Shown here: positions 45,001 through 48,000 of the stretch, piece after piece
How the letters are laid out: each line of letters begins with the position of its first letter
Numbering within the stretch: the first letter of the stretch is position 1
IMG/VR virus record: IMGVR_UViG_2880378312_000006
DNA length: 64,000 nucleotides
Origin: a virus
Taxonomy: Duplodnaviria > Heunggongvirae > Uroviricota > Caudoviricetes
Strand: one strand, 5' to 3'
Program-made: the position numbers

Positions 45001-48000
45001 CGGGATACTGGTTACTGCAGCTGCTGGACAAAGTCTCTCCGTCCCAGTGGGTGGCGATAGGCGTGCTGGGGAGTCTGCTGTTTGGGCTGCTGACATATCT
45101 GACGAACCTGTATTTCAAGATTAAAGAAGACCGGCGTAAGGCGGCGCGGGGAGAGTAAAGTGATGAAGAAAAAATACGAACTGGTTGTTAAAGGGATAAA
45201 TAATTACCCGGATAAGATTACTGTTACTGTGGCACCGGAAATTGGTGGGTATCCGTCACTGTTGTTGCCAGATGTGGCGATTAGTCTTGACCGTACTGAA
45301 GGTGCCACGCTGGAGTTTTACGAAGCTGAGGCGAAAAAGCAGGCGAAGCAGTTTTTCATGGATGTTGCTGCCGGGTTATGTGAAGGGGATGGTCCGTTAC
45401 CGGAAAAGCGTCCCGTAATTTTAGAGGCGCAGGATGTGTTGATAACCTACAGAGGAAAACTACCGGGAATAATTACGGGTTCTCTGAAGACTCCACCGCT
45501 GGCCTGAAGACTTAACATATCCAGGGATTTGAAATCGATAAACCCTGATAAATATCCATGAACGCAAAAATCAGATACGGCCTGTCGGCTGCCGTTCTGG
45601 CGCTGATTGGTGCAGGGGCGTCTGCGCCTGAAATCCTCGACCAGTTTCTGGATGAAAAGGAAGGTAACCACACCACAGCATACCGTGATGGTGCGGGTAT
45701 CTGGACCATCTGCCGTGGAGCCACCCGGGGGGATGGTAAGCCTGTTATTCCTGGCATGAAGCTGTCGAAGGAAAAATGCGACCGGGTTAACGCCATTGAG
45801 CGTGATAAGGCGCTGGCATGGGTGGAGAAAAACATCAGAGTGCCGCTGACCGAACCCCAGAAAGCGGGGATCGCGTCATTCTGTCCGTACAACATTGGCC
45901 CCGGTAAGTGTTTCCCGTCGACGTTTTACAGACGGATTAATGCAGGAGATCGAAAAGGTGCCTGCGAAGCGATTCGCTGGTGGATTAAGGACGGTGGCAG
46001 GGACTGCCGTATTCGCTCAAATAACTGTTACGGTCAGGTATCCCGTCGTGACCAGGAGAGCGCGCTGGCGTGCTGGGGAATCGACAGATAAGCAGAATAT
46101 TTTGCTGAAAAATGAGGTTTGCTTATATGGACGGATAACACGAAATCCTGCAAATTGGCAAAATGTAAGTGAATAAAGTCAAAACAGTTGTTTAACACTC
46201 AGGCACCGTAATGATGCCTTTGTCATTTCTGCGCATCTCACGCGCATCTCACAACACAGAACCTTTCAGGATGACCCTTGAGGATACCGGTTTGGCTGTC
46301 GGTGCCTTTCTGTGGGCTGGATTCCTGTGAGACAAGGTTCATCACTAAAAGGAAATAACCGATGAATATGATGGCCGTGCCGTTTCACGGCAACTCTCTT
46401 TATGTAGTTAACCATAATGGCGAACCATACGTTCCCATGAAACCTGTCGTTGCGGGGATGGGGCTGGCCTGGCAATCACAGTTGGCTAAGTTAAGACAGC
46501 GTTTTGCGTCAACTATAACGGAAATCGTTATGGTTGCTGAGGATGGGAAACAACGCAATATGGTGTCCATGCCACTTCGAAAACTTGCCGGCTGGCTACA
46601 AACCATTAATCCCAACAAAGTAAAACCCGAAATCCGCGATAAGGTCATCCGGTATCAGGAAGAGTGCGACGATGTTCTTTACGAGTACTGGACGAAGGGT
46701 TTTGTCGTTAATCCCCGTAAAATGAGCGTGATGGAAGAACTCAACCAGGCTTGTGCTGACATGAAACGGGATAAAAACATTGCCAGTGTGTTTGCTACCG
46801 GGCTGAATGAGTGGAAACAGGTTAAAGCCGCGCATGTATCAAAAATCCGTACGCTGGTAAATGAAGCGAATATGCTGATTGATTTTGTCCTGGCTGATAC
46901 AGGCAAAGGGAAAATAACAAAGGCGGATTGATGGGGTGGCTAATGATATCAGATAAACTCATAACGCTGGTGAAGAGCCTCTGTGTACTTGTCGGCATTT
47001 CATTTTCACTAATGCTGGTTGCTCTTTTTCTTTCCATGGCCTGGATGGCGTTGACTTCGGCAGGGCTGGTGGGGTGAGCATAAACCGAATGCTTTCCGCG
47101 TTTACCGTTATTCTGCTGGTGGTCTGTGGTGCGCTTAGTCTGGGGCTGAATCATTACCGCGATAACGCCATAACCTACAAAGAGCAGCGCGATAAAAAAG
47201 TCAGTGAGCTGGAGCTGGCAAATGCAACCATTACTGATATGCAGCAGCGCCAGCGTGATGTTGCTGCACTTGATGCCAGATACTCGAGGGAATTAGCTGA
47301 TGCGAGAGCTGAAAATGAAACTCTGCGTGCTGATGTTGCCGCTGGTCGTAAGCGCCTGCGCATCAACGCCAACTGTCCAGGCTCCTTGCGTAAAGCCCCC
47401 ATCACCTCCGGCGTGGATAATGCAACCGGTCCCCGACTGGCAGAAGCCGCTGAACGGGATTATTTCATCCTCAGAGAACGGCTGATGGCAATGCAGAAGC
47501 AACTGGAAGGAGCACAGGAATATATCCGTACCCAGTGTATACCGTGATGTTTTGTTACGAAGGTGTTACTGGTAACGTTAAGGTAATTTAACAAAGAGTC
47601 AGTTCCGGACTTTATAGTGTGCTCAGTTCATGGCCAAAAACGATTTCTGTGATAAATATTTTGAATATTATTTACAGGTAAATGGAGTGGGGCACATGGA
47701 TAGAAATATTACAATAGAGTATGAAGTATATGCCCGTATTGTATGGGCAGAGAAGGCAAAAACATGGTAATTCCGTGTGTTGCCATGATACCTGATTGGC
47801 AGAATTGTTGTTTGGTTTTGAGTATATAGTCAGCGTCTTTTGTTCGGTAATTGCTCTTTCAATTAAAATGCCAGATATGATTTGCTTTTCTTTGTTGTTT
47901 AGTTTTTTTGTATATTATTTTTATTGTTTTTATATAATTAGTTTTTTATTGTTGTCTTATTAAGGACGGTAAATTCAGGATGGCAGTCTGTAGATAAACG

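Follow-up and report, generated by a model that had tools for sequence, protein, structure and literature searches.

The window analysed here, a stretch of 64,000 nucleotides (nt) from the Caudoviricetes record IMGVR_UViG_2880378312_000006, carries an Ant-like gene between the endolysin gene R and the spanin gene Rz of a lambdoid prophage. Directly before this gene lies a conserved, covarying element that abuts the start codons of unrelated genes and is absent from Rfam. Judged from its sequence, it is probably a mobile, cargo-independent structured 5′ leader of lambdoid and P22-like late operons, with translational gating as its likeliest role. The leader appears to be a widespread, intricately folded RNA in some of the best-studied phages (P22, 933W, other Shiga toxin (Stx) phages and HK639). 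The gene arrangement itself is unremarkable and has been known since the 933W genome; what appears to be new is the roughly 130 nt before ant. The original prediction, which proposed a late antirepressor gene behind an operator made of direct repeats, picked a gene that was already annotated, over-read its function and mistook the operator, which looks like the visible tip of an apparently undescribed regulatory RNA family.

The structure tested for covariation comprises seven helices, namely nested H0, P1, P2, P3 and P4 and the pseudoknots K and X. R1 denotes a covariance model of the nested helices only. Along the window, the parts of the leader are the following.

46229-46361, plus strand: structured leader, from H0 to the base before the ATG; R1 match at 46229-46370 (151 bits, E 1.7e-39).
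46231-46245, plus strand: hairpin H0, stem GCGC/GCGC, loop AUCUCAC; 98% of cells paired, both sides changed in three of four pairs.
46236-46241, plus strand: 5′ arm of K (UCUCAC, in the H0 loop), a loop-to-bulge pseudoknot pairing with 46327-46332.
46255-46261, plus strand: 5′ arm of X (CACAGAA), directly 5′ of P1, pairing with 46308-46314.
46262-46280, plus strand: 5′ strand of P1, CCUUUCAGGAUGACCCUUG, in which CCUUU is the anti-Shine-Dalgarno.
46281-46290, plus strand: 5′ strands of P2 (AGGA) and P3 (CCGG); P2 98.4% and P3 96.4% paired, with GC/AU and CG/GC exchanges.
46294-96 with 46304-06: P4, weaker, 74% paired and deleted in one variant.
46308-46314, plus strand: 3′ arm of X (UUCUGUG), in the apical loop closed by P3.
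46317-46326, plus strand: 3′ strands of P3 (CUGG) and P2 (UCCU).
46327-46332, plus strand: 3′ arm of K (GUGAGA), in the bulge between P2 and P1.
46333-46352, plus strand: 3′ strand of P1, CAAGGUUCAUCACUAAAAGG, with the Shine-Dalgarno AAAGG(A) at 46348-46353, 8 nt before the AUG.

Compensatory changes are already visible by eye across nine aligned copies. In a plain MAFFT alignment of 23 representatives (A3), 90.6% of cells are paired, versus 32-50% when the 3′ partners are slid; 20 pairs are changed on both sides versus 4-8, and the covariation score of 0.284 (versus 0.05-0.10) was reached by none of 500 shuffles. The corresponding values for A4, an R1-derived alignment of 64 distinct rows, are 91.5% versus 33-51%, 31 double-change pairs versus 6-13, and a score of 0.292 versus 0.04-0.08. 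Because K and X are not part of the R1 model, A4 was not fitted to either of them. K is 99.2% paired in A4, where it occurs in six sequence versions with a variable central pair (UA 27, GC 23, AU 14), and P1 has 17 pairs, 11 of them changed on both sides, and is 92.9% paired. The HK639 class is one column off in P1, X and P4, and duplexes were therefore checked in free register. X then forms a duplex of 5-8 base pairs (bp) in nearly all classes, with a mean of 6.5 bp for cognate strands versus 4.4 bp for non-cognate ones, and it exists in about ten compensated versions, such as CUCAGAA/UUCUGAG, CGAGAG/CUCUCG and CCAAGAA/UUCUUGG. All 20 distinct P1 strand pairs form 17-21 bp at -15 to -34 kcal/mol, and the base of the helix joins CCUUU-like bases to the Shine-Dalgarno. 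Conserved mismatches occur in P1, as does a bulged A. In one variant the helix is perfect over 21 bp, and in another both strands carry matching deletions of 2 nt. RNAalifold, run on the MAFFT alignment, recovered part of the structure only (19 pairs).

The direct repeat of the original prediction is present, one base to the right of the position first given (about 46230-46251), and it can be understood from the leader fold.

46231-46252, plus strand: GCGCATCTCAC twice in tandem; unit 1 supplies the H0 5′ arm and loop, unit 2 the H0 3′ arm followed by a second copy of the loop.

The two units (46231-46241 and 46242-46252) stand head to tail and are 100% identical, and an exact tandem duplication of 11 nt is expected by chance about 0.015 times per window (64000 x 4^-11). 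The repeat is seen because, in this lineage, the 3′ arm of H0 is followed by a second copy of the loop sequence. This second copy is found only in the window type and HK639; elsewhere a variable linker follows GCGCA, and other leaders continue after the first unit with GCGCATATTAAC, GCGCACATCAAC, GCGCGACTTCTG and others.

If the repeat were instead a DNA operator of an ant promoter, with late Ant inactivating the CI-type repressors of co-resident prophages, its exact and non-random form would be explained. The protein does have the N-terminal domain of P22 Ant, and the window does hold two adjacent lambdoid prophages, as had been stated (RefSeq annotation of an identical E. coli chromosome). 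Trans-acting antirepressors that cross-induce prophages also exist in Salmonella, in the Gifsy phages. However, unit 2 is not kept in the homologous leaders of other phages, and unit 1 forms a hairpin. Its loop covaries with bases 90 nt further downstream, a pattern that protein binding to an operator leaves unexplained. The same element precedes Rha, KilA-N, HNH and TerB genes, the Ant C-terminal domain is missing, and the locus is without arc, mnt and sar, though sar was found in P22. A consensus scan, moreover, predicted no sigma-70-like promoter in 46092-46361 and three elsewhere in the 4-kb region, versus 5.7 expected. An operator at this place is thus very improbable. Inspection by eye showed neither a LexA box (CTGT-N8-ACAG) nor an IHF consensus in the leader. 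A conserved CsrA GGA motif is likewise missing; the HK639 type lacks the GGA motifs that the window type has.

The DNA between R and ant is a mosaic, and its parts support the earlier view that the gene was inserted into the lysis cassette.

46092-46361, plus strand: gap between R and ant, exactly 270 bp (first reported as about 270 bp).
46092-46185, plus strand: post-R segment, the left flank of the module; gap bases 1-94 are 82-89% identical (blastn) to H-19B, PhiR12_2 and several Stx phages.
46201-46228, plus strand: weak hairpin AGGCA/TGCCT followed by TTTGTCATTT, where most other leaders have a strong intrinsic terminator.

Phages that match only gap bases 1-94 (H-19B, PhiR12_2 and several Stx phages) lack the remainder of the gap, so that H-19B-type phages keep the first 94 bp after R and then continue without the module. 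Gap bases 139-270, in turn, are 85-89% identical to Salmonella P22-like phages (blastn), and this segment runs from the tandem repeat to the ATG. In the Salmonella phages it stands after Rz and before a Rha-domain gene (SPN9CC, Oslo) or a KilA-N gene (ST104). The gap, first described as non-coding, holds no conserved open reading frame (ORF); a 39-codon ORF at 46211-46330 is disrupted by indels of 1-2 nt in related copies. Upstream of the ant copy of the leader, only a weak terminator remnant is found, which failed the strict terminator test. An imperfect palindrome, AGCAGAATATTTTGCT, lies at the R stop codon (46091-46106, plus strand), in the segment common to phages without ant.

The leader was found in more than 100 copies among phages of Escherichia, Salmonella, Shigella and Klebsiella. 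Of 93 copies obtained by scanning IMG/VR with a pattern, 66 are unique. R1 found 82 copies in the window and the first 99 loci, and a further 30 sources gave 23 plus-strand copies and eight weak reverse-strand matches; in about 600 kb of unrelated genomes with 79 chance pattern matches, it found none. On genome contigs, a loose pattern gave one true match in 80 loci and otherwise chance matches, and was therefore used as a negative control only. The ant leader of 933W is identical and scores 151 bits with R1, and E. coli Sakai and EDL933 have exactly this leader as well. The leader also stands before a Rha gene in HK639, before KilA-N and HNH genes in ECP1, and before ant and Rha genes in phiON-2011. 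The Rfam 15 search (4227 families) covered 45900-47200 and gave no match at E<=10, and the leader loci of P22, SPN9CC, HK639, ECP1 and phiON-2011 gave none at E<=1. No description of the leader was found in the literature, for which coverage was incomplete and topics included ant/Rz/Stx, KilA-N/Rha/ORF11CD3, rha/IHF, the small RNAs (sRNAs) of enterohaemorrhagic E. coli prophages (AgvB, AsxR, Pas) and RNA-motif surveys.

The same prophage carries a second, divergent leader, with a TerB-family gene as its cargo.

41588-41611, plus strand: intrinsic terminator (7-bp stem, TTCG loop, T6), directly upstream of the second leader.
41616-41743, plus strand: second leader; R1 match at 41616-41752 (47.4 bits, E 5.5e-11).
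41744-42175, plus strand: TerB-family gene of 143 amino acids (aa); Pfam TerB 3.7e-14, RefSeq 'tellurite resistance TerB family protein'.

This leader follows the terminator and two tRNA genes and ends at the ATG of the TerB gene. It keeps K (ACGCCCG/CGGGCGU), X (CCACAGAG/CUCUGUGG) and P1 (-25.6 kcal/mol) with entirely different bases. The slot of the TerB gene is the stx slot of Stx phages; no leader precedes stx2A in 933W, because only 54 bp lie between terminator and start there. The tRNA genes, at 41322-41394 and 41498-41571 (plus strand, Rfam matches), lie downstream of the Q region and are Ile and Arg in RefSeq.

A further copy is found in P22 (NC_002371), where it occupies 39506-39652 before rha and scores 79.5 bits with R1. 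The annotated GTG start of rha (39575-40180) falls at 39575, within the leader. The true start is likely the ATG at 39644, which follows GAAGG and would give a product of 178 aa with Rha and ORF11CD3 domains.

Leaders and cargoes have been combined freely. When leaders are clustered at >=88% identity and cargoes at >=45% identity, 14 leader clusters and 16 unrelated cargo clusters make 30 different pairings that meet at the start codon; the window type is joined to five cargo families and the HK639 type to seven. The cargoes encode P22_AR_N with ORF11CD3, Rha with or without ORF11CD3, KilA-N with or without ORF11CD3 or P63C, HNH_3 with or without AP2, T5orf172/MUG113, TerB, and a 75-aa protein without assigned function. 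An intrinsic terminator, with a canonical hairpin and T-run, lies 6-22 nt upstream in 60 of 70 distinct contexts, and in most copies an AU-rich spacer separates its hairpin from H0. In all annotated copies, the leader is co-oriented with the lysis genes. Tandem leader-cargo-leader-cargo arrays are seen in four loci (L043, L099, L038 and L006) and in phiON-2011. Two IMG/VR loci (L054, 11652-11793; L082, 14211-14352) have an intact window-type leader before a decayed ant, of 149 aa in the one and 14 aa after an early stop in the other, which suggests that cargo can be lost while the leader persists.

Such shuffling with a junction at the ATG, the tandem arrays and the presence of cargoes that resemble homing endonucleases (HNH_3+AP2, T5orf172) could also point to conservation at the level of DNA, with the element as a recombination cassette boundary or a homing target of HNH/T5orf172-type cargo and its inverted repeats incidental. 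Such a role gives no reason to expect compensatory changes in seven helices, some of them long-range. Nucleases are a minority among the cargoes, and no recombinase accompanies the element. The shuffling is explained equally well by homologous recombination inside a functional leader. Selection on the DNA alone is accordingly highly unlikely as an explanation.

The gating role preferred here would work as follows. The usual layout runs from the intrinsic terminator through H0 and a fold of about 110 nt to the Shine-Dalgarno and AUG of an accessory gene. Read on the plus strand, within what would be the Q-antiterminated late transcript, the long helix P1 would be topped by P2 and P3 and its base would pair CCUUU with the Shine-Dalgarno AAAGG, while the long-range contacts K and X would hold the fold together. 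In this way the leader may block access to the downstream ribosome-binding site until P1 is opened or circumvented. The trigger could be the path of co-transcriptional folding, a small ligand, a host factor or cleavage by a nuclease (RNase III or RNase E). The likely purpose would be to time or limit the translation of accessory, often toxic, 'Bro-network' proteins, with the Ant-like protein as one of at least 16 interchangeable cargoes.

Geometrically, the RNA may fold back, with P2, P3 and X together about as long as P1 and K stacked on P1, or else X and lower P1 may be alternative states. A first assumption, that X and lower P1 necessarily exclude each other, was dropped, as such a fold-back could let all helices coexist. 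Also set aside as a required switch element was an alternative proximal partner for the 5′ strand of P3, which is possible in most variants and deleted in one. Nested alternatives are close in energy (-50.1 versus -44.7 kcal/mol).

A nuclease could play a larger part than that of a trigger. RNase III might cut P1, alone or stacked on K, or RNase E might cut in the AU-rich linker that follows the terminator, freeing the accessory cistron from the late mRNA with H0 as a protective 5′ hairpin, so that cleavage rather than a switch would set translation. The length of P1, together with its mismatches and bulged A, fits such a processing or stability element, as do the terminator hairpin and AU-rich spacer before H0 in most copies. 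Leader cleavage by RNase III is known to activate the translation of lambda N and T7 early mRNAs. Two covarying pseudoknots, however, exceed the needs of a nuclease site, and processing as the whole explanation is possible but rather unlikely. It is not strictly exclusive of a translational gate and is compatible with it as the trigger.

The assignment of the leader to the plus strand draws on context, namely the end of conservation at the ATG, the Shine-Dalgarno in P1, the shared orientation with terminators and operon, and the lack of a conserved place for a minus-strand promoter. Alternatively, the fold could be that of an antisense RNA from the minus strand which covers the cargo's ribosome-binding site in the manner of sar and P22 ant. 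The minus strand of 46225-46375 is more stable than its shuffles (z = -1.92, versus -0.09 for the plus strand), and the common C.A mismatch in P1 becomes G.U on that strand. The promoter of an antisense RNA would, however, fall in the cargo coding region, which is wholly different between copies, and none is predicted there. Conservation stops exactly at the start codon, terminators and operon all have the plus orientation, and minus-strand R1 matches are weak (10.7-22.8 bits). With misregistered columns removed, G-U exceeds A-C at clearly covarying pairs. An antisense origin of the fold is hence improbable.

Several observations nevertheless weigh against a plus-strand translational gate. Before the misregister correction, G-U and A-C cells are nearly equal (101 versus 88), and P1, K and X duplexes are slightly more stable on average on the minus strand, so that the plus strand rests on context. 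The nested plus-strand fold is not more stable than shuffles, as its z of -0.09 indicates. X adjoins the base of P1, while its partner X' lies about 27 bp up the P1-P2-P3 stack. The five pairs between anti-Shine-Dalgarno and Shine-Dalgarno are nearly invariant and thus give no direct covariation test, support coming from flanking pairs and indels only. A4 was fitted to the model for the nested helices, and all copies come from Enterobacteriaceae phages, a shallow and related sample for which shuffle controls overstate significance.

A more specific and tentative version of the gate is a new sensing RNA, either a riboswitch or a host-factor switch, in which the double pseudoknot would read host state or infection stage and open the Shine-Dalgarno of the cargo; this is conceivable, though not likely. 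The preQ1-II and SAM-II riboswitches and the btuB cobalamin kissing loop are translational leaders that sequester the Shine-Dalgarno in a pseudoknotted fold. Like these, the window leader would be a 5′ untranslated region, and it has about 130 nt, covarying helices, long-range loop contacts and a Shine-Dalgarno in its closing helix. Unlike them, it precedes functionally heterogeneous genes, which is unusual for a metabolite sensor, and has no Rfam match. If it did sense, it would be a common portable post-transcriptional gate for late 'moron' genes (Ant-N/Rha/KilA-N, TerB, HNH nucleases) in lambdoid and P22-like phages, including Shiga-toxin phages.

Should the leader gate translation, this would explain how potentially toxic DNA-binding accessory genes are carried in a late operon. 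It would also define a portable 'terminator-leader-gene' cassette that shuffles cargo between phages, and a compact regulatory part that is a candidate orphan riboswitch. Annotations would need to be corrected as well, including the P22 rha start inside the leader and the 'hypothetical proteins' called across the leader in several records.

Among loci studied by experiment, isrK-orf45-anrP of Gifsy-1 comes closest. There, an antirepressor-like gene downstream of Q is transcribed by terminator read-through and is translationally silent, because mRNA structure hides the ribosome-binding site until an RNA opens it; IsrK acts in trans via a small upstream ORF (PMC4825925). The likeness would lie in a late antirepressor-like gene that is transcribed but translationally locked. 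The window leader differs in having two internal pseudoknots and no evident upstream ORF or trans RNA. Searching Gifsy-1 with R1 at E<=10 gave no match, the window has no Rfam match to isrK, and isrK has no homology to the leader.

Leader cassettes also resemble the morons of lambdoid late operons (Juhala et al. 2000, as cited in PMC4104026 and PMC2629481), in that accessory genes stand between conserved late genes at the same sites, behind Q and the tRNAs or around the lysis genes, and vary between related phages. A classical moron, however, consists of promoter, gene and terminator and is expressed from the prophage, whereas the leader cassette is terminator-first, has no predicted promoter and shares a leader. 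In keeping with this, the window ant is directly followed by overlapping ORFs, and the terminator lies upstream of the leader in those 60 of 70 contexts.

The protein encoded by ant only partly deserves its label. P22_AR_N (PF10547) matches residues 5-113 (Pfam, E 1.4e-45), and the profile search named in the original prediction as the way to refute it also returned PHROG 524 'anti-repressor Ant' at 2.4e-112, over profile positions 7-210 of 317 only. Residues 1-127 are 50% identical to residues 10-136 of P22 Ant, with no alignment past Ant residue 136 (BLASTP). Besides P22_AR_N, Pfam matched only ORF11CD3 (PF10549, residues 122-164), at a marginal 27.0 bits versus a cut-off of 25 (E 5.5e-6), and P22_AR_C was not found. 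The N-terminal half of the label thus stands, and the C-terminal domain of Ant is missing, which accounts for the RefSeq name 'phage antirepressor N-terminal domain-containing protein'. ORF11CD3 is strong in Rha cargoes, KilA-N cargoes and P22 Rha and weak in the window protein, whose match to the C-terminus of P22 Rha is 29% over 34 aa (E 0.011). A PDB sequence search with the window protein gave no homologue, and a single-sequence AlphaFold2 model had a pLDDT of 44.8 and was unusable.

Phi24B Ant, an antirepressor of a Stx phage for which some experimental evidence exists, has the C-terminal 104 residues in common with P22 Ant, and its gene lies upstream of pR' (PMC3064807). It is a different gene from that of the window, having the P22 Ant C-terminal domain that the window protein lacks. 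Since that domain is absent and Phi24B Ant is a different gene, antirepressor activity and cross-induction by the window protein are weakly supported, and reading the gene as a working antirepressor calls for caution. By its predicted domains, the protein is a member of the 'Bro network' of domain shuffling, which includes ANT, Bro-N, KilA-N, ORF11CD3, P22_AR_N, Phage_pRha and others (PMC10111431).

The window gene shares three traits with the rha-slot members of this network, namely ORF11CD3 (marginal here), a late-operon place at the lysis genes and the shared leader upstream. As leader, position and C-terminal domain are like those of rha, the gene is best taken as the counterpart of P22 rha and not of the immI ant of P22. 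P22 rha likewise stands behind the leader and just after the lysis cassette, with ORF11CD3, as the comparison with P22/phi80 rha shows. It differs in having an N-terminal Phage_pRha instead of P22_AR_N and in following Rz rather than lying between R and Rz. Henthorn and Friedman are said to have found in 1995 that rha expression blocks phage growth in hosts deficient in integration host factor (IHF). With P22 Ant, the window protein shares a homologous N-terminal region of about 125 residues, and both genes lie inside the late operon, but P22 ant stands between genes 16 and 9. In contrast to immI, the window has no Mnt/Arc operators or sar, and control is apparently by a leader fold in cis. 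No arc- or mnt-like ORF occurs upstream of the window gene, and neither the gathering threshold nor E<=10 brought up sar in the window, while P22 sar scores 97.8 bits. Twelve nt into the ant coding region, a terminator scan flagged a hairpin, GCCGTGCCGTTTCACGGC then AACTCTCTTT (46374-46391, plus strand), which is cargo-specific and probably due to chance.

The surrounding 44.9-47.6 kb of the window form a lysis cassette of the Stx-phage type, in which the Ant-like gene does lie between R and Rz, as first described.

44952-45158: class II holin.
45160-45507: DUF1327/YdfR protein.
45558-46091, plus strand: endolysin/lysozyme R, 177 aa, the upstream neighbour of the gap; Pfam Phage_lysozyme 1.5e-24, phrog_7 endolysin.
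46362-46931, plus strand: Ant-like gene, 189 aa; P22_AR_N and weak ORF11CD3, without P22_AR_C.
46931-47077, plus strand: predicted membrane protein, 48 aa; phrog_4906 (3.9e-28), function not assigned; ORF50 in BP-4795.
47074-47547, plus strand: Rz spanin, the downstream neighbour; Pfam Phage_lysis 1.3e-46.
47300-47485: Rz1, embedded in Rz.

The 48-aa ORF belongs to the inserted module; its ATG shares bases with the ant stop (ATGA), and its own stop does so with the GTG start of Rz (GTGA). Its product may be a lysis modulator. The R-Rz gap of H-19B also holds a small membrane ORF, unrelated to this protein. The order R-ant-Rz is ordinary, being annotated in 933W and BP-4795 and carried by hundreds of Stx phages. 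Among the phage records searched, 386 matched the R-to-Rz stretch and 258 covered at least 80% of it. The gap and ant gene were matched in 1162 of 5426 complete RefSeq E. coli genomes (about one in five), at up to nine places per genome. The arrangement in 933W and BP-4795 is identical (BP-4795 at 93.7% over R to Rz) and the gene does not differ; in their records only the coding sequence is annotated ('possible regulation of host cell lysis'), and the 270-bp gap carries no annotation.

Downstream of Rz, up to the small terminase gene (47548-49017), the DNA includes a strongly AT-rich part with long runs of T (about 47800-47990), along with a PerC-family regulator gene (48011-48325, plus strand) and a YlcI/YnfO-family gene (48407-48631, minus strand). 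On the other side of the lysis cassette, Rfam places the sRNA STnc100 at 42344-42516 (plus strand, 104.7 bits), between the TerB/DUF3927 genes and a SASA sialate esterase gene (42653-44503). A 2026 preprint links STnc100 to the prophage sRNA PasD.

Further upstream, the window begins with the tail genes of another lambdoid prophage (about 1-12 kb, from the tape measure to J, Lom and tail fibres). These are followed, to about 26000, by type III secretion system effector genes (nleA, nleG, espM1), several insertion sequence elements and an integrase remnant, and then by int/xis of the prophage that holds the ant locus (RefSeq annotation of an identical chromosome). Rfam also matched the DicF antisense RNA at 29593-29644 (minus strand) and the sok antitoxin RNA at 36854-37028 (plus strand), the latter beside a Hok/Gef gene. 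RecE is truncated by IS1203.

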